A program made the position numbers and the translations under genes. 64,000 nucleotides of DNA from a virus. This document shows positions 5,450 through 24,159 of this stretch, in pieces. The notes beneath the pieces were generated by a model that was not told the DNA's origin, ran no database searches, and was given only the letters and a program-made list of their open reading frames with translations. The stretch's first letter is position 1; every line of letters starts with the position of its first letter. The stretch is taken from the IMG/VR virus record IMGVR_UViG_3300029267_002158, positions 9,812-73,811 of that record, one strand, 5' to 3'.

Positions 5450-5992
5450 ATGAGCAAGCTGTCAGAACAATGCAAGAAAACTTACGTCGAATTTTGCGCC
5501 AGAGAGAACCGCCTGGTACCCCTAGTGACTTTTGTCGATGCGAGCCTAAACCTAATTGGTCGGCAGCTCGAATACGACAGAGTCAAGCACTGGTCTCTTG
5601 AAGAGGGGTGGAAAGATGCGGCCTCCCTGGCGCTTCATGGTTCTGAGGAACGCAAGGAGATCCGTTACATTTTGAACCTGGCGTTCTCGTCAGCCATGAA
5701 CGCTGATGACGCAAAGGAGCTGATACAGTACGGCAAAGCGTACCAATACACCCTAGATGAGCTTGTAGATTCAGAGCTTGTTGATGAAATAGAAAGAATG
5801 GAGGGTCTGCGTAGGCACATCAAGTCATTCATAATGGCTAGCGGGAGTGAAATGGGAGGGAATAACCTGGCCGGACTGACAAGGCTCAGCGCCATATTGC
5901 ACAAGCGGTTGATGCCGCTTATTACTATGGAGGGTGAGGGCACCGTTGATCCGGACGCCTTCATTTTAGGCATTGAAGAGACGTATAACTAA
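5450..5992 (+). CDS. Probable terminase small subunit
   Basis: Position directly upstream of TerL; VKHWSLEEGW HTH-like motif. Confidence 0.55.
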   Translation: MSKLSEQCKKTYVEFCARENRLVPLVTFVDASLNLIGRQLEYDRVKHWSLEEGWKDAASLALHGSEERKEIRYILNLAFSSAMNADDAKELIQYGKAYQYTLDELVDSELVDEIERMEGLRRHIKSFIMASGSEMGGNNLAGLTRLSAILHKRLMPLITMEGEGTVDPDAFILGIEETYN

Positions 5993-7619
5993 GAGTCAGC
6001 TAGAAGAACTTAAAAGGTGCAAGGCTGATGTGGTCTATATGGTCAAGAAATATGGATGGCTTCAGCATACGTCACGCGGAGAGATACGCTGGGAGCCATA
6101 CGACTACCAGATTGAGATGCTAGAGTCTCTTCAGAATGGCGACAATATCATAACCCTTAAATCGAGGCAGATAGGTTGCTCATGGACAACCGCAGCATAC
6201 TTAATCTGGCTCATTATTTTCAACCCATCCATAAACTGCATTGTTCTTTCACAGAAAGAGCTTTATGCGGTCAAATTCTTGGAAAAGGCAAAATTCTTTT
6301 TCAATCGCCTTCCAAGATTCTTAAAGCCTAACGTTGTCTCTGATTCAAAGACGCAATTTACCGTGCAGTTTAGAGCAAAAAGACCAGATGGCGATTACAA
6401 GATCGCCAATTCATCTGTTGATTCACTTACCACAACAACAGATACGGGTCGTAGTTTTTCTGCGCGGCTGGTCATTATGGACGAAGCCGCGTTTTTGCCA
6501 AATGGCGAAGACACGTGGAAGGCCGTTAAGCCAACAACGACACACGGCGGCCAGATAGCTGTAATCTCGACACCGAACCGTATAAACTGGTTTCATACAC
6601 TGTGGGCAAAGGCCGAGGCTGGAGAATCACTTACCTTTAAGCCCATCATCGCCTATTACAGAGATTGCGGCTTTGACGACGAATGGTTGGCAAAAGTCAC
6701 TGATGGAATGTCAGTGACAGACATTCTCCAGGAATACGAATTGCAGTTCCTGACAAGTGGCAATCCATTCTTTGATCTGAACAAACTCGCCCTTTGCTAC
6801 TACGATACTGACGAGTTGGGTAAGATTGTTGACGCAGATGGCAAAAGCCTTAATGTCAAGACGTATATCAACTTCACGGGCGTGGACCCGTCAGAGGGGG
6901 CAGGAGACTATCATTCAATTGTATCTCTTAACCAGCACGGGGTGCAATTAGACGCTTGGCATTCTAAAGATACAAGCCTTGAAGATTTCTCCGGCTACAC
7001 AATGACACTGCCTGATGGCAGTCGTGTGGAAGTGGAGGGAAGGACCTCTAAATGGCACAGGATGTATCCTGGATATATGGTCATCGAGCAAAATAACTCC
7101 GGTCAGACGGTGTACTCTCGTCATATAACGCCAGACGATGATAGAAGCATCACCATTTCCAGAAAAACAACCGGCGGCACAGCGGGGGCAGGTTCCAAGA
7201 TGAGGATTTTAAACCTTCTGAAGTTGGCCGTTGCTGGAAGGCAGATCTACATCACCGACCTATTCACATACCGGTGTATGCAATCATTCGAGAGCAAACA
7301 AGGCGGTCAAAAGGCCGAGGCTGCTGACGGGGCGTATGACGATCCGGTTATGGCGCTTGCTCATTCGTATGCGGAGCTATATAAGTATGGCGGCTACGTC
7401 ATAGAGATGCCAGAGAGGACAGTTGGCGGGCAGAGAATGGTGGCTTTGCGGAAAGAGGACGATTTATCCATAGATGAGCTAGCATCAGCGATACACGTTG
7501 ATGGTGGCGTCATAGATGGACCTATATTAGATGAAAGCCCAGGTGGTAGGAGATTTGTTGATGAGCGAGATAGGCGTTTGCGCCCGCCCAGGGTGTCAGA
7601 ACGAATTGAAAACTGGTAG
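5973..7619 (+). CDS. terL: Terminase large subunit
   Basis: PYDYQ, LKSRQIGCS (Walker A), VIMDEAAF (Walker B), ISTPN, GVDP, DDPVMA. Confidence 0.95.
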   Translation: MKRRITKSQLEELKRCKADVVYMVKKYGWLQHTSRGEIRWEPYDYQIEMLESLQNGDNIITLKSRQIGCSWTTAAYLIWLIIFNPSINCIVLSQKELYAVKFLEKAKFFFNRLPRFLKPNVVSDSKTQFTVQFRAKRPDGDYKIANSSVDSLTTTTDTGRSFSARLVIMDEAAFLPNGEDTWKAVKPTTTHGGQIAVISTPNRINWFHTLWAKAEAGESLTFKPIIAYYRDCGFDDEWLAKVTDGMSVTDILQEYELQFLTSGNPFFDLNKLALCYYDTDELGKIVDADGKSLNVKTYINFTGVDPSEGAGDYHSIVSLNQHGVQLDAWHSKDTSLEDFSGYTMTLPDGSRVEVEGRTSKWHRMYPGYMVIEQNNSGQTVYSRHITPDDDRSITISRKTTGGTAGAGSKMRILNLLKLAVAGRQIYITDLFTYRCMQSFESKQGGQKAEAADGAYDDPVMALAHSYAELYKYGGYVIEMPERTVGGQRMVALRKEDDLSIDELASAIHVDGGVIDGPILDESPGGRRFVDERDRRLRPPRVSERIENW

Positions 7620-10600
7620 CACATATTGTTCCAGAAAATGCGCGGCTGCTGACAGGGCAAGGGTTAAGTCTTTGCGCCAGAAGTTGTCGCGTGACGCGAT
7701 GAAGCTTATACCTGGAGATATTACGACTACAATGGTTGACGCCTTGGGAAACGGAGCTTACCGTGTATTGGAGGAATGGGCTACAACTCTTGCCGAGAGC
7801 AAGGAATTAGCACCTCCGTTGTTGTCATACACGAGTGAGTCAGGCGATTACTCTAATCGTTACGGCTCCATTCAAACAGATCACGCTTTGTACAGGGCGA
7901 CGGATCAGTTAGGGTATGACACGATAGATGATATGATGCGTAACGGTCAGGTTGCATTTGGCGTAGAGATGAAACGCTCTTGGTTGCTGAGCGTGTTCAG
8001 GAACTCGCGTTCTTGGGACATAGAGTGCCAAGACGAGGATACAAAGAACATTGTGCGCGCCATGATGAAGCGTGTACTCACCCGCCATGCCGGAGAGTTT
8101 ATGGAAGCCATTCCATACGGCAGTTACTTTGGCGAGAAAATATGGGACTTCAAGGAGGCCAGCTATTGGGGAATAGATGGTGTCCAGGATGATGAAAAAT
8201 ATTACGGACTAAAATCGATAGAGGCCATTCACCCAAGGTCCATAAACCGCATTGTGTTTGATGATTCCGGACATCACTTTGACGGCTTCGTGCAGAACCA
8301 GGCGTTCGGTGAACAGAAGATTCCTGTTGCCCAGTCACTTATTTTGACGTACAACAAGCATTTCCGCAATTTGTGGGGTACACCAGCGCTAGATCCGGTG
8401 TATCCTTTTTGGTTTTGGTACGAGGTGTGCATGCGCTCCTTCGTGCGATATATGGAGCGCATGGGCACGCCAGTGACAGTGTGTCGCGCCCCGTCGAGAG
8501 GCCAGATTCGCGTCCCTGATGGAGCGCTGATGAAGTCCATGAAGTACGCTTTTCTCGTGGCGGGCAATGTCGCAGAGTCAAATGCAGTTGCCTTGCCCAG
8601 TGATGTCGATCCTGACACTGGACAGAAGCTTTGGGAGCTTGAATACCTCGCTGACGACAAGCGCGGCACGCAGTTCAAGGACGCGCTAGAACTTCTTGGC
8701 ACGCTTATTATCAGATCGTTAGTAATAAGCGACAGAGCTATTACCCAGGGCCCAACAGGGAGCTATGCTGCTGCGGCGAAACACTTCGCCGTGACAATGT
8801 TGCACAACGAACATGTTTTGACACAATTCATCAATCAGCTAAATTCATATGTCATACCACAGATTGTCGAGTACAACATCGGGGCGAATGCTAAGCCGGC
8901 TACTCTTGTCACAGAAGGATTGGACCCGGAGGAGAAAGAGAGGTTATTCAAACTCCTCTCGACGATGGGCAATCAGGCCGGCCAGACCACAATGAACTGG
9001 ATAGACTGGAAGAAGATCTTTGCTGTAGAAAACATTCCAGTTCTTAACCAGGAAGACTACGACGCCCTCAAAGAGGAGAAACAGGCTGCCGCCGACGAAG
9101 CTATGGAGCGGCAACGGAAAACAGGTGGGCAGTTCCCAGAGAACGGAGAGGAAGAAGAGCCGGAAGAAAAGGACGAGTCAATTAGCGAGAAGGTAGAGCA
9201 ATCTGCCGACTGGGCTCTAATGCACATCGCAAGCGGAGCTAGATTTCCGGTTGTGTTAACAGCCGAGGGGGCGAATGCTATTTTTGACAGGCTTGGAAAG
9301 AGAAAATTCCAACTCGCTAATCCGTATCATGATCCATTTGGCAGATTCACATCAAAGGCCGGCTCGTCTGTGGCTTCTGGCGCGCAAGCGATTGCCGATA
9401 ACACATTCAGGGATCCAAATTGGGTTGCTGCCGCCGCTGTTGTTCATAGCGGCAAGGCCAGAGAGATCATGCGTAGCCCTGAAGAGAAGGCAAGGATAGA
9501 AAAGGAGACGAAGCTCGCCCTTGATGCAGTTCCAGAAGAATTGCGACGCAAGGATCTGCGTGTGAGGCACCACGCAGGCATAGGCACGTATGTGAGCGAG
9601 GCGGCAAGCATAGAGTCGATGGGCAATACAAACCCGATGGTCGCAATGTCTGCGGGGTACGTAAAACGAACCGGGGATCGCACGATTCATCTCTCACCAT
9701 CGGTTGTGAGGGAGCTCTCCAGTGACAACGAGGTTCAACGCGCCTTTGCCCGCCACGCTATTATTCACGAATCGCTCCATGCTCGCAAGAGAGAATTTGG
9801 CGCAGAGCAAATATTGAAGCGCATCCCGATCGTATCTGGTGTTTATGGCAATCTCTCCACGCCGATTGAGGAGGGATTGACAGACCTAATGGCAAGTCAG
9901 ATTAGCGGCGTGGCTGGTGCGGGGCCATACTCCAAGTACCGTGACAGAATGGCAAAGATTGCTATGTCCGTCTCTGGTAACAACAAAGAGAGGGCTAATC
10001 AATGGATAAAAGATTCACACAAACGGGCAACAGGCCCGATGGATTTGACACGCCAGTTAAACATGGCGGGTTACAAGACAAACCTCGTAGAGACCATAAA
10101 ATATCTTAGCGGAGGCAAGGGGTCTCTTGTAGATCAGATTGGTACCGCTAAGGGGTACGGAAACACGTTTACCCGCCCCACCAGGAAATACAAGGGGCAA
10201 TGGGAAACAGACACAAACCTTAAAAGGTTGGCGACTGGTGCAGCCGAGGCGCTGTCAGCCTCGTATTATAGAAAGGGGATTGCAACTGGTATTGGCGAAG
10301 CGCTAAAGGAGGCGATGAAGACGTGGCGGGAGATGGAAGGTGTGGATTTGGAGTATGAGGAATTTGCCCCTGAGGAGTGGGACTGGGATTTGTCTGTCAT
10401 TGCCTCAGCAGCCGGCAGCGAGATGAGTGACATCATTGCCGATGTGCCAGACGAGTACAAAGACGCGATAGTTACATACTTTGGCCTCGGCTACGATTTC
10501 GTACCTCGTATGCTTGGCGATTTCCCGAAGCAACAAGAGAAGTTGCTTGAGGCGCATTACCTGTTCAACCCATACCATGATAAAGATGGCGAGTTTACGT

Positions 10601-12327
10601 CAAAGAAGGATGCAACTGTAGTTACAAGAACCACGACGAAGCAGACGGCAAAGAAAACAAGCAAGAAGAATGGTAAGGAAGGATTCTTTCAAAAAGCTTA
10701 TTCAGCCATGAGTGCGGGGGCGCAAAAAGCATTACTAGCCCCCGCTGAATATATGTCTAGGAAGAGCGGTCTTGGCCCCAGGCTTGCTAAAATGGGCGTC
10801 GAGATAGGGTCTGATATGCTCATAGAGAAACTTGTTGGCGCTGCCGTCCTTGCCAAGGCGTCGGTGGCCGGCGCTGCTTTGACGCAGATAGCCGCAACGG
10901 CAATCATGGGAGCCGCAATGCCCGCTGCGCTGCCCGCTGTTGGTGGTGTACTGCTTGGCATTGGGGCGTCGTGGGCGATCACGACAGGGATTGACTACCT
11001 CCAGACAAGGAGTTTGAACGCCTATGTGAACAGATACTCACCAAAGGACGATCAGCACGTTACGCTGACCATGCCCAAGATGGGAAAGTTCAAGAAGGCG
11101 AGAATGCTATTCTCGTTTGCCCCAAAAGCAATTGTCGGGACAGGAAACATAATGGATATGATTAACGGTGGCGAGCTTGCATCAGGCATGGGGATGGAGG
11201 AATGGGATGCGGTAGTCCTCGAAAGTGACGACAAGCCGCCTAGTGAAACGCAAAAGTTTGTTGCCTCCATATGGCCGCTCGTCAGCCTCGTGCTTAGTGA
11301 TGAGAAAACTGACGGTATGAGGTTGCCATACCTGGAAACACTAGACGGGTTTCCAGGCTTTGAGAAGAGCGGGGAATACCTCGTGATGAACAAGGCAGGC
11401 GCGGAGAAATTCGCAGAGCATTACTCGGAAGCAGATTTCCCTGAGATAGAAAAGGTCTCGTTTGGAAACCCTGATGGCATGTGGAAGACATTGGAAGAAG
11501 AAGGGGCGCTGACACCAAAGGGATCAGAAAAGAAACTGGAAGCCTACCAGTTATTTAATCCGTTTCACGACAAAAAGGGACAGTTTGCCTCCAAGGGATC
11601 TAAGGCTATCAGCAAGGTTGGCACAAGATTGTCAAACATGCCTGATAATCTGGATATTGTATCTCATGATAGCAACAAGAGTGTGGAAAAGGCGCTTGGT
11701 GATTTCAGCAAAAATGGCTTGGCCGCCTACGATAACGGAAAGATTCACGTAACCCCCAGGGGAGTAGAGGTATTTGCCAAGAATACAAAGCTGAGGGATC
11801 ACGTGTACACTCACGAGGCTGTTCATGGCCGGCTGCGGGCCAATGGCAAGCCAATGGTCGCTAGAAACGTGAAACAAGCGCAGTTCGAGGAGGGGGCAAC
11901 GGACTTGATGGCTGCGGCTATCAACGGTTCTCCAAACCTCATAGCGTACAAGGGGTATGCGGCCTCCATCGCCACGATGGCAAGGGAATCATCCAAAAAT
12001 CAGGACGGCGCGTGGCGGTTTGTATCGGAGTCTCATTACAAGAATAGCGATCCTGGCTTCGCCCCTAGTCTGAAGCCTGGAAAATGGGAGGATGTGGAAT
12101 GGTTGATGTCAAGTGCGCCACAGAAGCTAGAGGACGTGTCAACGGAGGGTCTTGATGAGTGGAAAAAATCAGAAGAGGCAAAGTGGAGACACATCTACAA
12201 TATTACTGAGGGGGGTCCGGATTCCGAAGAGAGTAATAGAGGAAATGGAGATGGAGCACGGAAAGCTGGTAACGGACACCGGGCTAACGATGTGGTTGGA
12301 AAGAGTTCTGGCGATAAAGAAAGCTGA
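7561..12327 (+). CDS. Portal protein (DUF935/Mu gp29-like) fused to a ~1000-aa extension with two HExxH peptidase modules and a hydrophobic module
   Basis: Follows TerL; AIPYGSYFGEKIW, NLWGTPALDPVYPFW, YMERMGTP, GSYAAA; RBS AGGAG before ATG 7561; HESLH and HEAVH motifs. Confidence 0.85.
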   Translation: MSEIGVCARPGCQNELKTGSTYCSRKCAAADRARVKSLRQKLSRDAMKLIPGDITTTMVDALGNGAYRVLEEWATTLAESKELAPPLLSYTSESGDYSNRYGSIQTDHALYRATDQLGYDTIDDMMRNGQVAFGVEMKRSWLLSVFRNSRSWDIECQDEDTKNIVRAMMKRVLTRHAGEFMEAIPYGSYFGEKIWDFKEASYWGIDGVQDDEKYYGLKSIEAIHPRSINRIVFDDSGHHFDGFVQNQAFGEQKIPVAQSLILTYNKHFRNLWGTPALDPVYPFWFWYEVCMRSFVRYMERMGTPVTVCRAPSRGQIRVPDGALMKSMKYAFLVAGNVAESNAVALPSDVDPDTGQKLWELEYLADDKRGTQFKDALELLGTLIIRSLVISDRAITQGPTGSYAAAAKHFAVTMLHNEHVLTQFINQLNSYVIPQIVEYNIGANAKPATLVTEGLDPEEKERLFKLLSTMGNQAGQTTMNWIDWKKIFAVENIPVLNQEDYDALKEEKQAAADEAMERQRKTGGQFPENGEEEEPEEKDESISEKVEQSADWALMHIASGARFPVVLTAEGANAIFDRLGKRKFQLANPYHDPFGRFTSKAGSSVASGAQAIADNTFRDPNWVAAAAVVHSGKAREIMRSPEEKARIEKETKLALDAVPEELRRKDLRVRHHAGIGTYVSEAASIESMGNTNPMVAMSAGYVKRTGDRTIHLSPSVVRELSSDNEVQRAFARHAIIHESLHARKREFGAEQILKRIPIVSGVYGNLSTPIEEGLTDLMASQISGVAGAGPYSKYRDRMAKIAMSVSGNNKERANQWIKDSHKRATGPMDLTRQLNMAGYKTNLVETIKYLSGGKGSLVDQIGTAKGYGNTFTRPTRKYKGQWETDTNLKRLATGAAEALSASYYRKGIATGIGEALKEAMKTWREMEGVDLEYEEFAPEEWDWDLSVIASAAGSEMSDIIADVPDEYKDAIVTYFGLGYDFVPRMLGDFPKQQEKLLEAHYLFNPYHDKDGEFTSKKDATVVTRTTTKQTAKKTSKKNGKEGFFQKAYSAMSAGAQKALLAPAEYMSRKSGLGPRLAKMGVEIGSDMLIEKLVGAAVLAKASVAGAALTQIAATAIMGAAMPAALPAVGGVLLGIGASWAITTGIDYLQTRSLNAYVNRYSPKDDQHVTLTMPKMGKFKKARMLFSFAPKAIVGTGNIMDMINGGELASGMGMEEWDAVVLESDDKPPSETQKFVASIWPLVSLVLSDEKTDGMRLPYLETLDGFPGFEKSGEYLVMNKAGAEKFAEHYSEADFPEIEKVSFGNPDGMWKTLEEEGALTPKGSEKKLEAYQLFNPFHDKKGQFASKGSKAISKVGTRLSNMPDNLDIVSHDSNKSVEKALGDFSKNGLAAYDNGKIHVTPRGVEVFAKNTKLRDHVYTHEAVHGRLRANGKPMVARNVKQAQFEEGATDLMAAAINGSPNLIAYKGYAASIATMARESSKNQDGAWRFVSESHYKNSDPGFAPSLKPGKWEDVEWLMSSAPQKLEDVSTEGLDEWKKSEEAKWRHIYNITEGGPDSEESNRGNGDGARKAGNGHRANDVVGKSSGDKES

Positions 12328-12478: not shown

Positions 12479-13066
12479 ATGAACAAAGAGGGATTTACAA
12501 AGGTTCCAGTTGGCTTACGATTAAGCGATGGGCGGACCGAGTATAAACACAGAAGATTTAAAGATGTCCTTGCGTTTCTTCATGACAGATACGGCGACAA
12601 GTATTTAAAGCTAGAACTTGGGCCGGGCAGGAAACAATCTTTGTTGACGCACCCGTCAATAGGATTGAATCCATCGGCTGACCCGGTGGCTGATATATTC
12701 TGGGATCTTAATAATGGCATTCCGCTACCCGGCGATTGTATCGACGAGATCTACTCGAATCAGACATTGGAGCATATCAAGCGAGAGAATTTTATCTTCT
12801 TGATGAATGAAATGTGGAGCGTAATGAAGGTTGGCGGTGTCATGGAGCACTGTGTACCGGAGTACACCTCCTCCGCCGCAGTCGGGGACCCGACGCACTA
12901 CAATATGTTTTCACGCGATTCTTTCAGATATTTTTGCATCCGCAACGACGGCACGATGTTTACTGACCGATTTTCTGACTACGGGATAACGTGCAGATTC
13001 ATGATGGAGTCTCAGGAGGTCAGGCCGGGACTTGACATCACTGTCAGAATGGTGAAGCTCAAGTGA
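12479..13066 (+). CDS. Class I SAM-dependent methyltransferase
   Basis: LELGPG, WDLNNGIPLP, QTLEHI, EMWSVMKVGG, DPTH. Confidence 0.8.
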   Translation: MNKEGFTKVPVGLRLSDGRTEYKHRRFKDVLAFLHDRYGDKYLKLELGPGRKQSLLTHPSIGLNPSADPVADIFWDLNNGIPLPGDCIDEIYSNQTLEHIKRENFIFLMNEMWSVMKVGGVMEHCVPEYTSSAAVGDPTHYNMFSRDSFRYFCIRNDGTMFTDRFSDYGITCRFMMESQEVRPGLDITVRMVKLK

Positions 13067-13596
13067 GAAAATATTGGAAATGCTTCCTCTCAACACTAAA
13101 GCACAAGTTCTATGTCTTGATTGCTGGCATGTGGCTTGGCGTTCCGCTGTGGCAATTGTTGGCACACGACATTAGCAAGTTTTCCGTTGCCGAGTTTCCG
13201 AGGTATGCAAGATATTATTTTGGGCAAGAAAAGGACAGAGGGGAATGGGCAAAGGCTTGGCACCATCACCAGCGGTTGAATGCACATCACCCAGAGTATT
13301 GGCTGCTGTCCTGGCGGTTCTGTGGAGGGGTGGGGCAGCCTGTTGCTGATAATGTTGTCGTCCTCCCTATGCCAGAGATGTATGTTCGCGAGATGGTTGC
13401 TGACTGGTTTGCGGCGTCCAAGATTTATACTGGCAGGTGGGACATAGCGACGTGGCTGAACAAGAATGGCCCAAAGATGATAATGCACAAGGGCACCGTG
13501 CGGCTCGTTGGGGATATTATGGTCGAGATGGGATACTACCTTACTGATAACTGCTCCTGGTCATGGATGGCGGGCGAAAGGTTTTTGAGAAAATGA
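13063..13596 (+). CDS. DUF5662-like His-rich (HD-like) protein
   Basis: HK..V, HDISKFS..EF, AWHHHQRLNAHHPEYW, MP..YVREMVADW. Confidence 0.7.
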   Translation: MRKYWKCFLSTLKHKFYVLIAGMWLGVPLWQLLAHDISKFSVAEFPRYARYYFGQEKDRGEWAKAWHHHQRLNAHHPEYWLLSWRFCGGVGQPVADNVVVLPMPEMYVREMVADWFAASKIYTGRWDIATWLNKNGPKMIMHKGTVRLVGDIMVEMGYYLTDNCSWSWMAGERFLRK

Positions 13597-14192
13597 ATTA
13601 TCTTATCGAGGAGTTGGTAAGAAGGCAAAACCTTACGGTGAGGGGGCAAGACTGGGATACAAACCACGAGCGTCTTACAAAAAATGTGGTTGATCAATTT
13701 GCTCCTCTTATTCCAAAGGGGAAGGTAGTTGATGTTGGTTGCGGGAAAGGACTTGCGAGGAAGCACTGGGTGCGTCACGGCTTTGATTGGGTTGGTGTGA
13801 CAATTGGCCCTGACTGGGAGTATATGAAGCACAAAGAGTGCGTGCGGGGTGATATGCACATCCTGTCAAGAATCGTTGACGCTGATGTTGTATACGCAAG
13901 GCATGTGCTAGAACATTCACCAATGCCGGTTGTGGCTCTGCGTCGGTGGATGGATATATCGACGCGCATTATTGTCGTTGTTCCAAAACCAACACCTCGC
14001 GCCATAGATGACACAGCGCACTTAAGCGTGTTGCCCAGAGTAAACTGGATTAAGTATTTCAACTTTCTTGGGTTGAGAATTGCGCTACAATCAGAAGTGG
14101 AGTACAGTAACCCAGCGCCGTGGCCGCAAACCGGTGGCGAGTTCAGATTTCTTCTATCACACAATCAAAAAAAGCTATTTTGCAGGAGGTAA
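13593..14192 (+). CDS. Class I SAM-dependent methyltransferase
   Basis: VVDVGCGKG, GDMH, YARHVLEHSPMP. Confidence 0.85.
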   Translation: MNYLIEELVRRQNLTVRGQDWDTNHERLTKNVVDQFAPLIPKGKVVDVGCGKGLARKHWVRHGFDWVGVTIGPDWEYMKHKECVRGDMHILSRIVDADVVYARHVLEHSPMPVVALRRWMDISTRIIVVVPKPTPRAIDDTAHLSVLPRVNWIKYFNFLGLRIALQSEVEYSNPAPWPQTGGEFRFLLSHNQKKLFCRR

Positions 14193-14195
14193 GGG

Positions 14196-14984
14196 GTGAG
14201 GCCCATTTTCTTTATTGGAAACAAGCGATCAGGCACGTCGCACGTGGTAAGACTACTCAATGCTCATCCGAATGTCCATGTGTGTTACGAGCAAGACTTA
14301 GCATGGATTCTATATCAGTGCGAAAAGGGATGGTGGCCTGATTTGGTGGGGTATAAATATGACACGCCTTATGGAATGTGGGGCGCTTTGTGGCGATGCA
14401 AGAACTATAATCACTTTGGAGGAATAAATATTGCGAATGACAAGCACGAAGCCATCAGGAATGCTTACTTTAAAGCATCCCTGGCATTGATGGAGGATTC
14501 TCCTTCTGGCAAGTTTCGTGACGCAATAAAGTGGATAGGCGATAAAAAGCCTGTCCAAAACGCAGATCCGGAGGTATTCGATTTCATACGAAGGCATTTC
14601 CCCGATGCAAAGTTTATACATCTCATTCGCCATGTGGCAGACTTCGCTGAGAGCACCAATTCCAGGATTGCGTGCTACAAGCACGGTCCAAAATTCTGGT
14701 ATTATGAAAGAGATCACCTATTCAGAATGTGGGCAATAATTGAGGGGTGGGTCCTGAGAGACAAGGAGCAAGCGCCGGATTGCATAATTGATGTACGATA
14801 CGAGGATTTGTGCAGCTCTCCCGTCGAGGAAATGGAAAGGGTGTTCAGTTTTCTCGATCTGGAGATGGATTCGCGCGTTGAAAGGATAGTCAGCGAGACC
14901 ACTACCCCCATCCCCAAGTACGATAGATCTGTTTCTGATTTCGGATCTGCGAGAGAGATAATGAGGGCGTACTCCTATGCGTAA
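14196..14984 (+). CDS. PAPS-dependent sulfotransferase
   Basis: IGNKRSGTS (5'-PSB loop), LLNAHP, GDKKP, FPDAKFIHLIR, VRYEDL. Confidence 0.9.
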   Translation: MRPIFFIGNKRSGTSHVVRLLNAHPNVHVCYEQDLAWILYQCEKGWWPDLVGYKYDTPYGMWGALWRCKNYNHFGGINIANDKHEAIRNAYFKASLALMEDSPSGKFRDAIKWIGDKKPVQNADPEVFDFIRRHFPDAKFIHLIRHVADFAESTNSRIACYKHGPKFWYYERDHLFRMWAIIEGWVLRDKEQAPDCIIDVRYEDLCSSPVEEMERVFSFLDLEMDSRVERIVSETTTPIPKYDRSVSDFGSAREIMRAYSYA

Positions 14985-15486
14985 GGCGTCATTTTTATTT
15001 TGCAGGGTCTTGTTTACTAAATTCGGCGTTGACCCGGCGGCGGGCAGGGCAATTGATGTTGGCGGGGCGGACAGGATTGTATATCTCAAAAAGAAGATGC
15101 CAAACCCCCTACTGGAGTGCAGTCCAGATCTGGACTTCTTCGACAATGGATTTCTTGGTTCTGATAATCGCGATTTCCTGAATGAGGATGACGTTGCTCC
15201 CCTGGAGGGCAAATACAACATTGTTTACAGCTTCGACACCTTGGAGCACGTCAAGGACCCGTGGTTGTTTTACAAAAACATGGTTCGTGTTTCAAAGAAG
15301 GGAGGGCATATATTTATAGCAGCGCCATTCAGGCGGCCTTACCATCCGTCCCCTGGTGATTATTGGAGGTTTACGCCGGAGGGGCTTAAGTTGCTTTTCG
15401 AGAAGATGGACAACGTCAAGGTTCTGGCCGCTGAGTGGGACATTGATCTTGTCGGTTCCGTTTTATTAGTCAGGAGGACAGAATGA
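14977..15486 (+). CDS. Class I SAM-dependent methyltransferase
   Basis: IDVGG, TLEHVKDPW, KKGG, PYHPSPGDYWRFTPEGL. Confidence 0.85.
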   Translation: MRKASFLFCRVLFTKFGVDPAAGRAIDVGGADRIVYLKKKMPNPLLECSPDLDFFDNGFLGSDNRDFLNEDDVAPLEGKYNIVYSFDTLEHVKDPWLFYKNMVRVSKKGGHIFIAAPFRRPYHPSPGDYWRFTPEGLKLLFEKMDNVKVLAAEWDIDLVGSVLLVRRTE

Positions 15487-16523
15487 AAAGAAATATCTTA
15501 CTGGTGATCATTGATTGCTTGCGTTTCGACAAAGTCAATGAGGATCTCATGCCGTTTACACGGCGATGGGGAATGGAGAATGTGTGGTTTAGCAATCACC
15601 GGGTTGTTAGCCATTGCACCGACCCATCTATCACAATGATGCTAAGCGGCGTTCATCCTGATGTAATTGGATTGTACTCAATGATGTACGAACACCGAGA
15701 TTACACTATTCCCAATGACATTAAAATGATCTCGGAGGTCGCTCGTGGGTATGGATACTTCACCGGCCTGGTATCTAACCTTGCGAGGTGGTATAGGCGG
15801 GGGCAGAATGTGTACCTTGATTGTCGCGGGTGGGCCGGAAGCAAAATCTTTGACGAATCTGTGCGGCTTGTCAAGAGTTTCAATCTTCCATGGTTCCTCA
15901 TTGTTCACGACGATTCCTGTCACCGTGAATACGAACGCGGCAGCTATGATAACGCTTGCCGCGCAGTGGATACCTATATCAAAAAGCTGCTCGATTCTGT
16001 TGACCAAGAAAACACAGACATCATTATCACGGCGGACCATGGCGAGGGACTGGGGCAGGAGAGCGTGACAGGGAGAAAGATTATCCAGCACGGATTTGGC
16101 CTCGATCCGTTTCTCACACACGTCCCTTTGCTGGTGAAGAGGGGGGCGGGCGATATGTTTCCCAAGAAATGTGTAATAGACCAGGTGACGGACAATATGT
16201 ATATTTACCAGGCGCTTAGATATAGAATTTGCGGCGCGAATGCCATTCCGGCGTTTGGCAGGCCGGTGTTTCAGGCTGGCGATACCCCGCCAAACATTCG
16301 ACATAGGGGCATTGTCCTCCCCGACCAGAAACAGTTCATTATCGAATCGCAGGGCGGAAAGGTGAATGGAAGGTATTATATAGGCCAATTCACAGAAGGG
16401 GAAAAGCGCAGCGCCGAGGAGATGTTGGCCGGCCACTGTTCCAGACATGGCATTGATTACTGGGCGGAGAGTATGGAGCCGGAGGCGGAATCAAGGCTAA
16501 GGGGGTTAGGATACTTTGGATAG
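15483..16523 (+). CDS. Sulfatase-like hydrolase/transferase (alkaline phosphatase superfamily)
   Basis: NILLVIIDCLRFD, CTDPS, IITADHGE, HG..L...HVPL. Confidence 0.85.
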   Translation: MKRNILLVIIDCLRFDKVNEDLMPFTRRWGMENVWFSNHRVVSHCTDPSITMMLSGVHPDVIGLYSMMYEHRDYTIPNDIKMISEVARGYGYFTGLVSNLARWYRRGQNVYLDCRGWAGSKIFDESVRLVKSFNLPWFLIVHDDSCHREYERGSYDNACRAVDTYIKKLLDSVDQENTDIIITADHGEGLGQESVTGRKIIQHGFGLDPFLTHVPLLVKRGAGDMFPKKCVIDQVTDNMYIYQALRYRICGANAIPAFGRPVFQAGDTPPNIRHRGIVLPDQKQFIIESQGGKVNGRYYIGQFTEGEKRSAEEMLAGHCSRHGIDYWAESMEPEAESRLRGLGYFG

Positions 16524-17126
16524 GATAAACGAGGACAGATTTAGTCTAATTCAAAGCAAGGAACTTGGTTACTGGAAGAACACGCATTGCGATCCTAGGG
16601 GCCGTGGTATCATTACGACAGAAGGTTCATCAGTCACATGAGGAGGTTTGATACTGTTGTTGATGTCGGGAGTGGCCCTGTCCCGTATTTCTGCAATCAC
16701 AACGTAAGGTTCGGGCGAGCGGTTGCCGTAGATCCCCTTGCTGTACCTTATTCCAAGATAGACAAATACCAACCATTCGTCAGCAAGTGCGAGTACTCGA
16801 CGGCGAGCGGAACCGTCGAGTTATTAAGCGGCTTTGCTGATGCTGTGTTTTGCATGAATACATTGGACCACTGCCAAGATCCAGCGTTTGTTCTGGGTGA
16901 GCTGAAGAGGATTGCAAGGCCAGTAAGTAAATTGTTTTTTCAGTGCGATGTTGGCAAGAAGCCAGACCACCTGCACCCGCACACCATTGATGCAGACTGG
17001 GTATCAAGTGTGCTTTTGAAATGGTTTTCTCCTATTGTGAATTATACCTCAAAGAGTTGGAAATTTGATTGCGATGTCTTATGGTTTGTGGGAGATATGA
17101 AAAATGAAAATAGTCCACGTCAGTAA
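16516..17126 (+). CDS. SAM-dependent methyltransferase, apparently split by a 1-nt frameshift at 16598-16601
   Basis: VVDVGSGP, AVDPL, CMNTLDHCQDP; N-terminal piece MDRINEDRFSLIQSKELGYW starts at TTG 16516 in another frame. Confidence 0.75.
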
Positions 17127-18054
17127 ACGAAAGAAGCATGACAAAGACGGTTTGCACCTTGGTGGAGTCGAGGCGTTTTCAAGCTACCTGAAGGAGGTGA
17201 TTCCTGAAATGGAATTGTTCTCCTGGCTCGATTTCAATGATTGGCTCGCGACCCCGGACATACCAGACTTCGAGAGGGCCTCGATGCTAAACACTTACCT
17301 CTTGGAAGTTGGCGGGATTGACGAAGAAACAATTGTCATAGTCGATGGGTACTGGGGGCTCGGCCTAGAGGGGAAGGTAGCGCGATTAATATCCGTTTGT
17401 CACGGCAGCTTGTATGGCCGGTTTATTCAGTCCCAGATTTATCCTTGGGGCGGAGTGGTCGATATGGAAGAGGTTGAGGCTCAGCTATACATGTTTAAAA
17501 ACTCAGAGGTAGTAAGTGTATCGTCCGAGTCTCATTTAGAGTTGCTCAAAGCCGGCGTACCAGGGTCAACTGTTATTCGTCACGGCGTACCGCTAGACAA
17601 GTTCATGCCGTATCAAAAGAAGAGAGATGTGTGGATGCACGCTGCAACATCAGCGCGCAAGGGCGCGGATCTCTTGCATCATATTGCAGCCGAGGTCGGA
17701 GAGGGGTTCAGCATCGAAGCCATGAATGAGCGCAGTGGCATACCAAAGAAAAAGTCTATGAGACTGTCCCAAGCCAAGGCTCTTATTGCTCCTACAAGGC
17801 ACGAGGGAAATTCCTATTTGCTCCTCGAAGCACTTGCTAGCGGAACACCGTTGCTGACATATCAAACGGGTCTCGCTTGTGAGATGGATGAGAGATGTGG
17901 TATTATCACAGACGATTTATCTCCAGCGAACTTTGGGAGGCATATCAGGCATTGGGATGAATACACCTTTGCCCCACGAGAATGGGCAGAAGAGAATTTC
18001 TGTTTTGCAGATTTCGAGAGAGATTGGAGAGATTACCTTGACTATCCTGATTGA
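17104..18054 (+). CDS. GT-B (GT4-like) glycosyltransferase
   Basis: GGVE, IRHGVPLDKF, RKG, PTRHEGNSYLLLEALASGTP. Confidence 0.9.
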   Translation: MKIVHVSKRKKHDKDGLHLGGVEAFSSYLKEVIPEMELFSWLDFNDWLATPDIPDFERASMLNTYLLEVGGIDEETIVIVDGYWGLGLEGKVARLISVCHGSLYGRFIQSQIYPWGGVVDMEEVEAQLYMFKNSEVVSVSSESHLELLKAGVPGSTVIRHGVPLDKFMPYQKKRDVWMHAATSARKGADLLHHIAAEVGEGFSIEAMNERSGIPKKKSMRLSQAKALIAPTRHEGNSYLLLEALASGTPLLTYQTGLACEMDERCGIITDDLSPANFGRHIRHWDEYTFAPREWAEENFCFADFERDWRDYLDYPD

Positions 18055-21000
18055 GATACCAACAAAGGGCAGGGATTCAACACTGGGTCGTTGCCTTGCG
18101 GCCCTGTACAATCAGTCGTGTCAGGGCTTCGATGTGCTAATTCTGAATGATGGCTACCATCCCGTCGGTGATACAAAGACAACGGAGTTTATCATTTCAG
18201 AGATGGCGAGGCACCATGACATCTCTGTCCGGGATGGCTCACGCATCAGTCAAGCGCACAATCACAACATGCCGCTTTATGATCGTGAGCTTCTGGATTA
18301 CGAGTACATTCTTCGCCTCGACGACGACATTCTACTTGATCGTACAGCACTGGCAAGGATGGTTGCTTTTATGGACAAGCACCCCAATGTCGGCGCTGTC
18401 TCCGGTTTGTGGTTTGAGATGGAGTGGAAGGACAAAGAGTGGCATGACCGCGCAGAGATGAGCTTTAGCCCTGAAACTAAGCAAGAGACAAGCGGCGACG
18501 TCGGGGCTGTCAACTCTAATTGGCAGCAGAGGATGTACCATCCGTCCAACGAGCCACAGGCTGTAAACCACCTTTATGGGCCGTGCATGTATCGAGCCGG
18601 CGCAATGCGTCATGCGGGCGGCTGGCCGGAGGTATACAGCAAGGGGGTGGCTCACGGCGAGGAAACAGATGGTACCTTTCGTCTGTGTATAGACGGGTTC
18701 GATCTTTTTGTGCTACCTGACGTCACTGGGCAACATCTAAAGACCAGCGGTGGTATTAGGGCCGACAAGGACGTTGGAAAGAAGCAGTTTACCGACTGTA
18801 TAAAATGGAGAAACAGGCTTCCGCTGATAGAGGGTATAAATTTCAACCCCACTGTCGCAGTGTGGTGCCAGCATTCATTTGGAGTCGGCGGTGCCCAGAG
18901 ACAGTTTTATCAAACAGTTAGCTTGTTGCAATCCAAGTCTGGGCTCAGAGTAGATCCCGTCTTTACGTCCCAGTATATGCAGCCCGAAGAGTGCGAAGAA
19001 GTCTTCGGCGTCTCCTACGAGGAGCGCGATCCACTGGATGAATACGATGTGTGCATTGTCATGGGGCATGAGCCATTTGTGCCCGTGAAAGCGAAGCACT
19101 ACATTTTGTACGTCTTCTTTCCCGAACCAAAGGCGGTGTTGCAAAGTAATTTTGACAGCAGAATAAGAGCGATAGTGGGCAACAGCAAGTATACCGCTCA
19201 ATGGATAGAGAACAGGTGGCGTTACAAAGCAAGTCACATATATCCCGCAGTGGACATGATAGGCGTGGACGATGCAGAGAAAGATGACCTTATCCTCTGT
19301 GTCAGCCGAGGAGATCCGCACAAAGCGCCTATGTGGCTGATGGAGAGATTCAAGGAAATTGATCTCCCTGGCTGGGAATTTCATCTAGTTATGGCTACCA
19401 CTGGCGGCGTCTACACGTCATACGAGGAACAACTGCGGGAATTTGCAAGCAAGAACGACGATATTTTCATTCATGAGAATGTCAGCGATGACGACCTGGT
19501 TAAAATGTATCGCAGGTCAAAGATTCTCTGGTCCGCAAATGGCATTCACGGTTCTGAGAACCCGCAAAACGCAGAGCATTTTGGGTTGACACCAATTGAA
19601 TCGTGGTCTGCAAAGTGTCTGCCGATTGTGTTTGACTGGGGCGGGCACAAGGAAACGGTGGACAAGTGCTTCAGGTGGAGCGACGCAGATTCTCTAAAGA
19701 AGCTGACCGTCAAGGTTGCGCAAGAGGGGTACGGAGTGTTTGGTTGTGGCGAGCCAGTGGCTCTTTCTCTGTACAACGAGGGGGATTATGCCTGGGAATT
19801 TGAGCAACTTATCAGGAGGGTAAACGCCCTGGCTTTGAATGTCGAGAGAGTGGAAGTAACAGAGGTGAAAGCGCCAAAGATTCGTGTTGGAGCCTGGACG
19901 GATTCCCCAAGACTGACAACCGGCTTTGGGACTGTTGCGAGCCAGATTTACAACCTTCTGGGGAAGCAAAATGATATTGAGCTTTGCGTCTTCGGCATGA
20001 TGGATTCTATGCACGCTAGGCCAGATGAGGAGATGCCATTCCATTTTATGCCATCGCCATTGTCAGATCCGGAGGGCTGCGGAAACAAAACAATGCCCCA
20101 CTTTTTCAACTGGGCTAGGCCAGACGTAATGTTTTGGCTTTACGATCCGGGAGGTATGAACTCTCAAATATCCACTGCGAAAATCACCGGCTGGTCAGGG
20201 CCGAACGTCGCTTATTTTCCCATTGAGGGATTGCCCGCCCCAAGGCCTGTTGGTCAGCTTGTGTCAAATATTGAATATCCCGTGACCTATTGCAAGTCAG
20301 CAGCGGAGCACATCAAGCTGCTGACTGGCACAGATGTTGATTTTGCGTATCACGGTATAGATCATGCCCCGTTTGAACCGCTGAATGATAGAGACAGGAA
20401 TCAGATTAGAAATTTAGTTGGGTGGGGCGATAAGTTTGTGATCATTAACGTGGGCACAAACAAGAGGGTAAAGCAACAGCCCTATCTCATAGAAATGATG
20501 AGGCACATTCTTAAGATGGGGCATGACGACATCTATCTGTATATGCACACCAAGGCATTTGACAATCACGTCCTGCAAGGATGGGTTTTGGACTATATCA
20601 GGGACCTGTACTCTGCGATTGACGGCAGCGATTTAAAGAAGCATATTCTGTTTCCGAGAGATCATGCAAAGTGGGCAGGCCCGCCATACAAATTCCATGA
20701 AGATATACCGGTGTGGAAAATGACAAAGCCTCCCCTTCCAAGCATGAGGGGTGCAATATTCGAGGCACTGGACTTGATAACAAGGTACCAGATTGCCGAC
20801 CTGTACGTTGATACGTCATCCGTAGAGGGATGGGGATTGCCCACTCTTGAATCTGTGGCTTGCGGCACACCAGCAATAACCGTTGACGACGGGCATGTCA
20901 GGAGCGAGGTTCATTCAAAATATTGCTACACCGTAAGTCCAAAGCACTGGACAACATGGCATACTGGCGCAAGGTTGCAGCTTATTGATCCTGAAGAGAT

Positions 21001-21151
21001 GGCGCAGAAGGTTATCGACGTTCGCAAATTCTGTCGATTCGAGGCGGAATACAAGTCAAAGATGGTGCGTGACGATCTCCCTTGGGAGCCAACGTGTGAA
21101 AAGTTCCTGGGGCTTATAAGGACCGCCTATGGAAAACTCGAAAGGCAATAA
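18038..21151 (+). CDS. Tri-domain glycosyltransferase (GT2 + GT4 + GT4)
   Basis: IPTKGR, ILNDG, RLDDD, GEETD; GGAQRQ...EHFGLTPIE; TGFG...EGWGLPTLESVACGTP; TTG 18038 with RBS GGAGAG. Confidence 0.9.
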   Translation: MTILIEIPTKGRDSTLGRCLAALYNQSCQGFDVLILNDGYHPVGDTKTTEFIISEMARHHDISVRDGSRISQAHNHNMPLYDRELLDYEYILRLDDDILLDRTALARMVAFMDKHPNVGAVSGLWFEMEWKDKEWHDRAEMSFSPETKQETSGDVGAVNSNWQQRMYHPSNEPQAVNHLYGPCMYRAGAMRHAGGWPEVYSKGVAHGEETDGTFRLCIDGFDLFVLPDVTGQHLKTSGGIRADKDVGKKQFTDCIKWRNRLPLIEGINFNPTVAVWCQHSFGVGGAQRQFYQTVSLLQSKSGLRVDPVFTSQYMQPEECEEVFGVSYEERDPLDEYDVCIVMGHEPFVPVKAKHYILYVFFPEPKAVLQSNFDSRIRAIVGNSKYTAQWIENRWRYKASHIYPAVDMIGVDDAEKDDLILCVSRGDPHKAPMWLMERFKEIDLPGWEFHLVMATTGGVYTSYEEQLREFASKNDDIFIHENVSDDDLVKMYRRSKILWSANGIHGSENPQNAEHFGLTPIESWSAKCLPIVFDWGGHKETVDKCFRWSDADSLKKLTVKVAQEGYGVFGCGEPVALSLYNEGDYAWEFEQLIRRVNALALNVERVEVTEVKAPKIRVGAWTDSPRLTTGFGTVASQIYNLLGKQNDIELCVFGMMDSMHARPDEEMPFHFMPSPLSDPEGCGNKTMPHFFNWARPDVMFWLYDPGGMNSQISTAKITGWSGPNVAYFPIEGLPAPRPVGQLVSNIEYPVTYCKSAAEHIKLLTGTDVDFAYHGIDHAPFEPLNDRDRNQIRNLVGWGDKFVIINVGTNKRVKQQPYLIEMMRHILKMGHDDIYLYMHTKAFDNHVLQGWVLDYIRDLYSAIDGSDLKKHILFPRDHAKWAGPPYKFHEDIPVWKMTKPPLPSMRGAIFEALDLITRYQIADLYVDTSSVEGWGLPTLESVACGTPAITVDDGHVRSEVHSKYCYTVSPKHWTTWHTGARLQLIDPEEMAQKVIDVRKFCRFEAEYKSKMVRDDLPWEPTCEKFLGLIRTAYGKLERQ

Positions 21152-21385: not shown

Positions 21386-21424
21386 AACAGGGCCGCGTGA
21401 AACTTGCGCGGCCCTGTTTTTTTT
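21386..21424 (+). terminator. Intrinsic terminator inside the head-operon leader
   Basis: AACAGGGCCGCG/CGCGGCCCTGTT stem ending in a T8 run. Confidence 0.85.
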
Positions 21425-21434
21425 GGAGGTTCTT

Positions 21435-22589
21435 ATGCCAGCAGCGTTAGATAGTTGCGTGGAATCACTTTTGACAAAATGGGACAAGGACCCGTCCAGC
21501 AGGCCAACTCCAAAGAAGGACGAGGAAGGGAAGCCACAGGACGCAAAGTCTCAGGCAACCGCCATTTGCCAGTCTTCGCAAAAGAAAGATGAGCCGAAGA
21601 AGGAAACCCCGCCGTCCACTTCAAAGAAAGAAGAGCTGGAGTGGAACAACCCCACTATCACCGGAATGGCTCTGACAAACAGGCCGCATATCAAGGGGCT
21701 AGATCCTATTTCCTGGATTCAGGAGGGTGGCAAGAAGCTGTTAAAGGTCCCGTTGCTCATTCTGGGGAAGTGGTCTCACCCAACAGGCGTGTTGAATTTC
21801 AGCAAAGAAACCATTGATAGAATGGTAGCCAACTTCAAGGACAGGCTCGTCGGTCACGACATATCAATTGACGCTAAGCATCTGCCAGAGATTGGGGCAG
21901 TCGGGTGGACGGAGAGGTTTGATTCCGAGGTCCGCGCCGACGGAAAAACGCAATTCTTTGCCGTAGCCGAAGCAACCGCCGCCGGAGCAAAGATTGTTGA
22001 CGAGAAGCGATACCGTTACGCCTCTCTGGAGTTCCACACGAATTGGGAACACCCTCTTCGGGCAGCTTTGTCAACAGATGAGTTAGCACCGTTTACAGAG
22101 GAGGCTATTATGCCTAACGAGAACGTCATCAGTCTTGAAGCTCAGTTGGATGAGGCTAACAAGTCTCAGCGCGATCTTCAAGAGGCTTTGAGGCTGGAGG
22201 AGGAAAAGCGCAGCAAGCTGGAGGAGCGGCTTGTCGTGCTGGAGAAGCAGAATTATCGCCAGAGCGTCGATAGCATCTTGCTTAAAGCTGAGGCGTATCG
22301 AGACGAGAAAAACAGGGGGCACAGCAAGACCATTCTTGACTGGGCTCGCGATGTTTTTCTTGAGGAGTCTATTGGCGAGGACGACACAGCAATAGAGCTG
22401 GAAGACAGGATGGATACTGGGCAAGTACGCTCCTATTATCGTCGCGCAATTGCACGCTTGCTGGAAATACTACCTGGCGCGGTTCCGATGAGCGCCGGGG
22501 TCAGCGACCCGGACAAAAAGCGTTTTCTCTCTGATGACATTGATGAGGAATCCATGGCCGACGCTGTGAAGCAGATGTGGGAAGCATAA
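21435..22589 (+). CDS. Mu gpI-like prohead protease plus scaffold
   Basis: ALTNRP, GKWSHP, IDAKH...AVGW, YRYASLEF; C-terminal coiled coil; RBS GGAGGT. Confidence 0.85.
   Translation: MPAALDSCVESLLTKWDKDPSSRPTPKKDEEGKPQDAKSQATAICQSSQKKDEPKKETPPSTSKKEELEWNNPTITGMALTNRPHIKGLDPISWIQEGGKKLLKVPLLILGKWSHPTGVLNFSKETIDRMVANFKDRLVGHDISIDAKHLPEIGAVGWTERFDSEVRADGKTQFFAVAEATAAGAKIVDEKRYRYASLEFHTNWEHPLRAALSTDELAPFTEEAIMPNENVISLEAQLDEANKSQRDLQEALRLEEEKRSKLEERLVVLEKQNYRQSVDSILLKAEAYRDEKNRGHSKTILDWARDVFLEESIGEDDTAIELEDRMDTGQVRSYYRRAIARLLEILPGAVPMSAGVSDPDKKRFLSDDIDEESMADAVKQMWEA
22110..22589 (+). CDS. Scaffolding protein from internal in-frame start (Mu gpZ analogue)
   Basis: GAGGAGG upstream of in-frame ATG at 22110, just before the coiled coil. 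Confidence 0.65.
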   Translation: MPNENVISLEAQLDEANKSQRDLQEALRLEEEKRSKLEERLVVLEKQNYRQSVDSILLKAEAYRDEKNRGHSKTILDWARDVFLEESIGEDDTAIELEDRMDTGQVRSYYRRAIARLLEILPGAVPMSAGVSDPDKKRFLSDDIDEESMADAVKQMWEA

Positions 22590-23004: not shown

Positions 23005-24159
23005 ATGGCAACTTATCCTAATCCGCTTACAACCACGTTTATGGACAAAGCGATCAAAGAACGGCCCACCAAAGAGGCTATCAAGCAGAGTTACATCGGG
23101 CTTAGTATTCTACCAATGAAAGATGTCCCGGACTACGAATTGACCTGGGATATTATCAAGCACCAGAACCATCTTGCCGGCGTGTATTCTCACACCGGTG
23201 TTCCGATTCCTGGTGATGACCCAGACTTCAAGCAAGTAATGGCTGATGTGATCAATATCATGGCCGCGAGGGTTATGGACGATCAGTCAGTCATGGTGTT
23301 GAGGGACCCTGGTGAGCCGTCGCTCCGCAGCAACATCGTAAATTCAGCGAAGCAAAAGGCGATGAAGCAATTAGCCAATAAGATTGCCAGCGCTGACGAT
23401 GAGGTAGAGGCCGTTATCGAATACCTCATTATGCAGTCATTGCAGGGTAGCATTACCTGGCCGCCAAAGGACGACGACGGTAACGCGATTGCCAATACGC
23501 CGGCTTATTGGGGCGACGTGTCATTTACGCTCTCGCTTGGGTTTCGCTCTGCGTACACCCAGAATATCTCCACGCTGGCCGGATGGGATGGCAGATCTGG
23601 TGGAGGGTACAACTGGAAGCACGCCAACGCCGATCCGATGCTTGACCTTGAGGTTTTGGACGGGTTATTCACAAAGACCTCCGGCCTGAGTATGGACGGA
23701 GCAAAGATAATTATGTCCCGGTCGGTGTTGAGCTATATGGCGACCCGCCCGAACGTGATTAACTGGTTCAAGGGAACTGATTCCGGAATCAAGTATATTC
23801 CCGTTCACGAGCTAAAGGACTACATCAAGCTCAAAACCGGCTTCAACATCCAGACATACGATGCTAGGTGGACGTATGCTACTCCCACCAAGAGCGCTTC
23901 TGGTCAGACGGAGAACCTTGTACACTTTCTAAAGGAAGGAAAGATGCTGGTTATCCCGAAAGGCGCACTTGGTCGTGACATCGCGTACTTTGCCACTGCC
24001 CCAACGAGTGGCGCGGACGATAGTTACAAGCCTGGCAAGTACACTTGGGCCGAGAAGCTGAAAAAGCCCCCCTGGAAATGGGAGGTTGGTGTCGGGATCA
24101 AGGGTTTCCCGATTCTGAAGTCAGTTCGGGAAATTGGCGTCTTTGATGTTTTCAACTAG
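23005..24159 (+). CDS. Major capsid protein (gpE-like)
   Basis: Synteny; 384 aa; EYLIMQSLQGSI and W...ADPMLDL gpE-type motifs. Confidence 0.9.
   Translation: MATYPNPLTTTFMDKAIKERPTKEAIKQSYIGLSILPMKDVPDYELTWDIIKHQNHLAGVYSHTGVPIPGDDPDFKQVMADVINIMAARVMDDQSVMVLRDPGEPSLRSNIVNSAKQKAMKQLANKIASADDEVEAVIEYLIMQSLQGSITWPPKDDDGNAIANTPAYWGDVSFTLSLGFRSAYTQNISTLAGWDGRSGGGYNWKHANADPMLDLEVLDGLFTKTSGLSMDGAKIIMSRSVLSYMATRPNVINWFKGTDSGIKYIPVHELKDYIKLKTGFNIQTYDARWTYATPTKSASGQTENLVHFLKEGKMLVIPKGALGRDIAYFATAPTSGADDSYKPGKYTWAEKLKKPPWKWEVGVGIKGFPILKSVREIGVFDVFN

Follow-up and report, generated by a model that had tools for sequence, protein, structure and literature searches.

The gene considered here lies at 7561..12327 (+) of a 64,000-nucleotide stretch (the window; positions 9,812 to 73,811 of IMG/VR virus record IMGVR_UViG_3300029267_002158) and raises the question of why a phage would make its portal protein as the first part of a 1588-residue chain that continues into three further modules, each opened by the same short peptide. 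The window comes from an uncultured marine phage of ~74 kb, whose record (73,811 bp) is complete and has terminal repeats. The gene product is a phage-type polyvalent protein, anchored by its portal part and carrying three cassettes, namely a first zincin-like module with a further domain, a membrane-type module as judged from hydropathy, and a second zincin. The modules are probably carried in the head in fixed numbers and released at infection, and here it is proposed that the peptide that opens them, called the tag below, is a portable junction or leader element common to the capsid-internal cargo of many phage lineages.

Portal Anchor and Junction Tags

The gene is an uninterrupted open reading frame (ORF) running from 7531 or 7561 to 12327 (+), with the start at 7561 backed by an AGGAG ribosome-binding site 8 nt upstream; it encodes 1588 residues plus the stop codon, and the identical protein is present on four contigs in a public protein collection. 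Residues 120-480 (7918..9000, +) form a Mu-type portal domain (PF06074, Portal_Mu, the DUF935 family), which scores 74 bits against a Pfam curated cut-off of 23.9 bits, also matches the portal family phrog_113 (E = 5e-21) and is the sole Pfam match in the 1588-residue protein. The portal is followed by an acidic linker (9073..9195, +), in a wider acidic segment (residues 501-585) where 20 of 85 residues are Asp or Glu, and by a pre-tag element (9196..9306, +) containing ADW and then Pro with a hydrophobic run, which leads from the linker to the first tag and is conserved in the alignment of 16 relatives before their first tag. The layout read in the first-pass annotation, a DUF935-type portal of ~520 residues with an acidic linker and three tagged modules, is therefore borne out by a single ORF, by the portal match and by the position of the tags.

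Each of the three modules opens with [hydrophobic]-x-L-[F/A]-N-P-[YF]-H-D-x-x-G-x-F. The Asn of this motif is at residue 587 in tag 1 (FQLANPYHDPFGRFTSK; 9307..9357, +), at residue 1003 in tag 2 (HYLFNPYHDKDGEFTSK; 10555..10605, +) and at residue 1333 in tag 3 (YQLFNPFHDKKGQFASK; 11545..11595, +), exactly where a peptide repeated at each module start had been reported. The number of matches expected from composition is 6e-7, and the three observed are the sole copies in the 73.8-kb genome.

Leu-Glu dipeptides had also been described as recurring near the module borders. They are present as described; however, they are not enriched (10 observed vs. 8.5 ± 2.7 in shuffles, P = 0.33), and no Leu-Glu is conserved before the tag across 86 tags of the Mu-portal lineage. 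Leu-Glu cut sites at the module borders, similar to the L/I-x-E sites of T4 gp21, were rejected on these two grounds. The only conserved Leu-Glu is found in K-L-E-[DE] directly after the core of the terminal zincin (12127-12138), which is kept in most relatives and may serve for processing or merely belong to the zincin domain.

It is extremely improbable that separate genes were joined into this long ORF by an error of assembly or sequencing. Four public sequencing runs, drawn from three studies of sediment and seawater (2018 and 2021), each yielded a contig that spans all 4767 bases unbroken; these contigs show one synonymous change (Gly912) and zero indels relative to the window ORF, and the same layout is present in at least 21 independent extended portals. 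Because the source sample may be among the four runs, the independent relatives are the stronger argument, and with both lines of evidence the fusion stands. No RNA dataset was found among the sequencing runs carrying the stretch.

Zincin Modules and Membrane-Type Module

Module 1 (9358..10095, +) and module 3 (11599..12195, +) are read as members of a rare gluzincin-fold family without a Pfam match in these scans and are predicted peptidases. These include, in module 1, an HExxH motif (9766-9780), an EEG motif (9868-9876) and a match to the zincin profile and, in module 3, HExxH (11812-11826) and EEG (11887-11895) with the K-L-E-D after the core. The two HExxH motifs are at residues 736 and 1418, with 0.05 expected, and the modules align with each other at E = 3e-9 across HExxH...EEGxTDLMA, in agreement with their initial description as paralogous zincin-like domains. 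In an alignment of 34 zincin sequences, H92, E93, H96 and E118 are invariant and E117 is nearly so; the HExxH noticed in the two modules is thus conserved in homologues, along with its downstream Glu. The features of a gluzincin are present, with an HExxH helix and a downstream Glu as the third zinc ligand on a zincin core fold in the predicted structure.

The AlphaFold2 model of module 3 has a mean predicted local distance difference test (pLDDT) score of 80.6, with values >90 for residues 21-200. In a full structural alignment of this model against 48,161 PDB chains, zincins fill all of the top matches, led by M1 aminopeptidase F3 (Z 8.9; 153 aa, root-mean-square deviation 3.6), LTA4H (8.7) and thermolysin (7.5), so the structural check of this module supports its zincin assignment. 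M1, LTA4H, thermolysin, M30 and M32 peptidases align at Z 6.8-8.9 over 140-158 residues, and an ArdC-type zincin is matched at Z 5.6 only. The best Foldseek match of the zincin in the PDB had E = 0.28, the zincin profile matched no PDB sequence at E up to 10, and the ESM Atlas returned only unnamed clusters, one of them with 18% Peptidase_M78 members. Pfam peptidase families were matched by 0 of the 34 members, with weak SprT-like matches in two only, and the window modules had no match to Peptidase_M91 (PF14891) at E up to 1. Searched against 1.84 billion proteins, the zincin profile finds just 67 cluster representatives. The C-terminal domain of module 1 (10096..10554, +) is similar to a single protein, P0010 (47.5% identity over 141 aa).

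Module 2 (M2; 10606..11544, +) consists of a basic linker, a hairpin (10819-11037) and an alpha/beta subdomain (11233-11460). The hydropathy profile shows a Gly/Ala-rich hydrophobic stretch of ~70 residues (residues 1087-1159), over which AlphaFold2 places two long helices with low confidence, consistent with the Gly/Ala hydrophobic hairpin noted before. The mean pLDDT of M2 is 51, and its small alpha/beta subdomain was modelled at pLDDT 74-91. Structural matches of M2 are generic helical hairpins (Z <7), and the ESM Atlas gave no usable match to this module. Homologues of M2 were found in at least 14 proteins, including the stand-alone P0070.

Extended Mu-Type Portals

When only the portal region was used as the query, 21 further extended Mu-type portals were recovered, 904-1588 aa in length. 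An HExxH motif lies in the extension of every one (0.05 expected per protein), and each carries the tag, a variant of it with a one-residue insertion or a form with an H-P-R-D core, while a hydrophobic segment after the portal is present in 13. The first tag is located at residues 518-600 in every relative, which is the usual portal end, and the zincin is the last module in all of them. At least 11 proteins have the zincin directly after M2, and a minimal form, found in several (e.g., P0075 and P0080-P0082), contains the portal, the tag, a Gly-rich linker, the hydrophobic segment and the zincin.

Other modules differ among the relatives. J-domains with an intact H-P-D are present in P0002 (residues 724-764), P0003 (508-548), P0007 (990-1026) and P0018 (1386-1422), a Peptidase_M91-like module was found in P0006 only (28.7 bits), and a second zincin is found in the window protein and in several relatives. 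The cargo therefore varies, as had been suspected, in its J-domain, M91-like zincin, extra zincin and membrane module; however, the modules are not free-varying effectors throughout, since this lineage conserves the membrane module and the terminal zincin as a pair. No description was found of an obligate zincin on extended Mu-type portals, usually accompanied by M2 or a hydrophobic segment, and this feature is considered new. The same modules are also encoded by stand-alone tagged genes, as tag-M2 in P0070, as tag-M2-tag-zincin in P0013 and as tag-zincin in many other proteins; P0012 is a further stand-alone tagged gene of this kind.

Cultured phages had no such extension and matched with the portal part alone. 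With P0013 and P0012 as queries for related loci, either no relative or a tag match only was obtained, and the tag with Leu before the aromatic gave three matches in 185,579 bacterial species genomes, none of them with a zincin or M2. In the relatives with a J-domain, the phage portal would bring a co-chaperone domain for the host Hsp70. The close portal relatives P0005 and P0071-P0073 have the tag form W-x-x-x-x-H-P-R-D-x-x-G-[RKQ]-[FW], which replaces N-P-Y-H-D, and its presence in close portal relatives links the two tag types.

The Tag in Other Viruses

A degenerate DNA pattern for F-N-P-[YF]-H-D-x-x-G-x-F matched at least 119 viral contigs. Among the matches listed, 183 in-frame tags are present in 150 ORFs, with up to seven per protein; Lys precedes the Phe in 120 of 153 copies and Arg stands before the last Phe in 132 of them, a hydrophobic residue lies three places before the Phe, a Gly/Ala/Ser-rich linker follows the tag, and the zincin family of the window is present in only 3 of 119 tag loci. 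The residue before the aromatic differs by lineage (K, L, N, D or G), and in the Mu-portal lineage, it is Leu before [FY] in 81 of 86 tags. Among 70 tag-bearing ORFs, an XkdF-type head protease is found in 15, MuF in 11 and a portal in 15 (three Pfam families), and the cargo in the rest of the chains includes ADP-ribosyltransferases, topoisomerase IB, NUDIX, 2H phosphoesterases and others; the tag lies after the anchor domains and ahead of such enzymes. The searched literature yielded no paper with the motif strings or describing the tag.

The largest tagged chains are giant polyproteins at L064:2923-10713 (-), with 2597 aa and six tags, and at L071:1008-9440 (-), with 2811 aa and seven tags. 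A tag without cargo is found at L024:1738-3216 (-), where a Portal_3-type portal ends in ..NFNPYHDARGRFASAPGED followed by the stop codon, 18 residues after the tag start, and a MuF gene comes next. The Nitrososphaera provirus Pro-Nvie1 (FR725450.1) has a portal (L127:3995-4204) that carries ..EFNPYHDERGRFASA.. 65 residues before its end, and the next gene (L127:4176-4808) encodes a RelA/SpoT-like enzyme and overlaps the portal gene by 29 nt; this overlap could hide a frameshift fusion. With a tag in the portal of a thaumarchaeal provirus, the tag is not confined to bacterial viruses, which argues against a bacteria-specific host factor as its reader. The zincin was also considered as a universal reader of the tag and was rejected because of the multi-tag polyproteins without HExxH in other lineages.

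Head Module and Neighbouring Genes

The portal gene has the setting of a head module, with a terminase gene upstream and protease/scaffold and capsid genes downstream. The large terminase (5973..7619, +; phrog_2, E = 6e-38; PF03237) is encoded directly upstream and overlaps the portal start by 59 nt. A candidate head protease with a coiled-coil scaffold tail (21423..22589, +), which is a possible cutter in trans, has a weak Mu gpI-type match (PF10123 at 22 bits, below the cut-off of 25.2; phrog_328, E = 3e-4) and a syntenic homologue in the relative L009. The major capsid protein (23005..24159, +) matches phrog_29 (E = 2e-21) and PF03864. MuF (PF04233) had no match in the modules or anywhere in the complete genome, so the extension stands where Mu-like head modules have MuF.

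Between the portal and the head protease, ~8.7 kb (12479-21151) contains genes for a methyltransferase, DUF5662, a sulfotransferase, a sulfatase-fold protein and a giant glycosyltransferase; at the matching place, L009 has ~6 kb of DNA. At the N-terminus of the portal polyprotein, a Cys4 motif read from the sequence (C-x4-C-x10-C-x3-C; 7579..7641, +), possibly a zinc ribbon, is kept in the four closest relatives, and more distant extended portals are without it; a metal-binding knob at this end of a portal would be unusual. The C-terminus is a charged low-complexity tail (12196..12324, +) with AlphaFold2 pLDDT <50.

Possible Roles of the Extension

Portals are 12-mer rings at one capsid vertex, and in every solved portal known to us, the C-terminus faces the capsid interior. 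Covalent fusion to such a ring would fix the stoichiometry at 12 copies per module, and the packaging of 12 copies of each module inside every procapsid is a strong inference by analogy with established portal structure, in line with the earlier proposal that the portal ring loads a fixed number of effectors. Within the shell, where the portal fusion would place these copies, the chain would be cut at the tags or immediately before them, by one of the zincins in cis or by the head protease in trans, and the freed modules would then leave through the portal and the tail channel with the DNA. At the host envelope or membrane, the conserved pair of M2 and then the zincin would most likely function as a device for piloting or ejection, and the other modules would form variable cargo. 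Cleavage immediately upstream of the tag is favoured by the lineage-specific residue before the aromatic, as at the P1 position of a protease site, and by the portal end located there. As a whole, this account of portal-loaded cassettes that are cut at the tags and ejected with the DNA, with M2 and the zincin acting at the envelope, is held tentatively, its chances being a little short of even.

Several points weigh against it. The multi-tag polyproteins L064 (six tags) and L088 (five tags) have no HExxH at all, so the zincin cannot be a general tag reader, and the tag is not docked on its own zincin in the AlphaFold2 model (tag pLDDT ~50). Stand-alone proteins keep the full tag of ~16 residues with leaders of only 2-12 residues, and the portal of L024 stops just after its tag; these two observations speak more for a binding element than for a simple cut site. 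The match behind the head protease assignment falls below threshold, the membrane label of M2 rests on hydropathy because its model is poor, and cleavage, packaging state and ejection are all inferred. A literature search on the processing of Mu portals found nothing relevant.

The undocked tag and the portal that ends just after one would also suit an extension that is packaged but never cut, forming an internal core or plug on the portal, in a place comparable to that of the P22 portal barrel and the T7 core. Such a core would organize the DNA or gate its exit, and its zincins would act inside the capsid or only at ejection. In its favour, all 21 portals keep the fusion as an obligate feature; however, the same modules are also found as separate tagged genes, so covalent attachment is not needed for function, the catalytic residues of the zincin are invariant, and the J-domain and M91-like modules have no obvious job in a DNA-filled capsid. 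This possibility is considered unlikely, and the same low weight is given to an extension whose task would lie in head assembly within the producing cell, where it might tether the head to the membrane, recruit chaperones or act as a maturation protease attached to the portal, and which would afterwards be removed and lost like a scaffold instead of being injected. For such an assembly role, the J-domains of the relatives could recruit host Hsp70, the zincin is obligate, tags elsewhere are found inside head-protease fusion proteins, and, with the Mu gpI-type match below threshold, another protease might be needed. On the other hand, the tagged cargo elsewhere consists of enzymes on host targets (ADP-ribosyltransferases, topoisomerase IB, NUDIX), the protease/scaffold gene homologous to that of the window is syntenic in a relative, and a membrane tether would be topologically awkward from the portal face in the capsid interior.

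Self-cleavage of the tag at Asn-Pro, as in the NPTH of the FlhB/SctU export-gate proteins, would need neither a reader nor a protease. Asn-Pro is present in most tags, N-P-[YF]-H resembles N-P-T-H, and independence from a reader would explain the presence of the tag across differing portals, proteases and hosts, including the archaeal provirus. Nevertheless, this is highly improbable, as Pro is replaced in the variants N-K/Q/S-x-H-D and others have no Asn-Pro (..E-D-H-P-R-D..G-K-F), the FlhB site lies within a folded domain whereas a flexible linker follows the tag, whose model has low confidence, and a cut of this kind would shorten stand-alone proteins by just a few residues. A more general proposal, regarded as rather doubtful, is that the tag [IV]-x-[LK]-[FY]-N-P-Y-H-D-x-x-G-R-F would be a universal and portable signal of bacterial and archaeal tailed viruses for capsid loading or hand-over to the exit channel, acting through a virus-intrinsic or tag-to-tag interaction and displayed here on the portal together with an obligate, self-processing hydrophobic-plus-zincin pilot that would open the host membrane.

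Only for a handful of model phages is it understood how the proteins carried in the head are chosen, loaded and released. In many uncultured phages, one short peptide marks the border between head-internal anchors and very different enzymes, and should the tag turn out to direct loading or release, it would become possible to predict from the sequence by itself which proteins phages inject, and to design phages that carry selected proteins into cells. The locus described here is a clean case, in which the portal itself as the anchor would fix the copy number at 12. In this portal lineage, the zincin that is always kept and the hydrophobic segment that is usually kept point to a conserved job in genome delivery and not to a shuffled weapon.

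Comparison with Known Systems

The internal proteins of phage T4 reportedly share a capsid targeting sequence that is cut by the prohead protease gp21 at L/I-x-E. Similarly to the tagged modules, unrelated proteins have a short leader in common, and those of T4 are said to end inside the capsid and to be injected. In contrast, the tag has ~16 residues, is internal as well as N-terminal and is present in many lineages rather than in one, and Leu-Glu sites are neither enriched nor conserved in the window lineage. The tape measure protein Pb2 of phage T5 is said to have hydrophobic segments and a metallopeptidase motif. For gp47 of phi24B, a recent report proposes a role as an ejection protein (bioRxiv 10.64898/2026.04.10.717836). 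The likeness is that a hydrophobic segment and a metallopeptidase domain are combined in one protein, which exits the virion along with the DNA, as would be the case here; however, proteins of the Pb2/gp47 type are not fused to a portal, the window protein showed no relation to them in sequence or specific fold, and its envelope role is a predicted one.

The MuF polymorphic toxins of temperate phages (Jamet et al. 2017, PMC5576092) have a head-internal anchor and variable C-terminal enzyme domains, and their description makes no mention of a motif, linker or cleavage. The difference is that the anchor of the window protein is the portal itself, in a genome without MuF.

The general design of a portal or MuF anchor with a multidomain cargo that contains a zincin has already been described for the polyvalent proteins (Iyer, Burroughs, Anand, de Souza and Aravind 2017, J Bacteriol, PMC5512222). 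In that work, portal and MuF fusions are described, zincins are the commonest hub domain, and packaging in the capsid, autoproteolytic release and delivery at invasion are proposed; a junction motif is not mentioned in the portion of its text that was searched. As in the polyvalent proteins outlined there, the window protein has a virion-internal anchor and a zincin-like metallopeptidase among other modules, with at least two distinct globular domains and the portal as the anchor, and the repertoire of tagged cargo elsewhere (ADP-ribosyltransferases, topoisomerase IB, NUDIX and 2H) corresponds to the polyvalent-protein repertoire. The locus is a real and unusually clear member of this known class, with two features, the junction tag and the obligate zincin on extended Mu-type portals, for which no description was found. 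Unlike the shuffled cargo of polyvalent proteins, the membrane module and the zincin are kept by the window lineage as a conserved pair.

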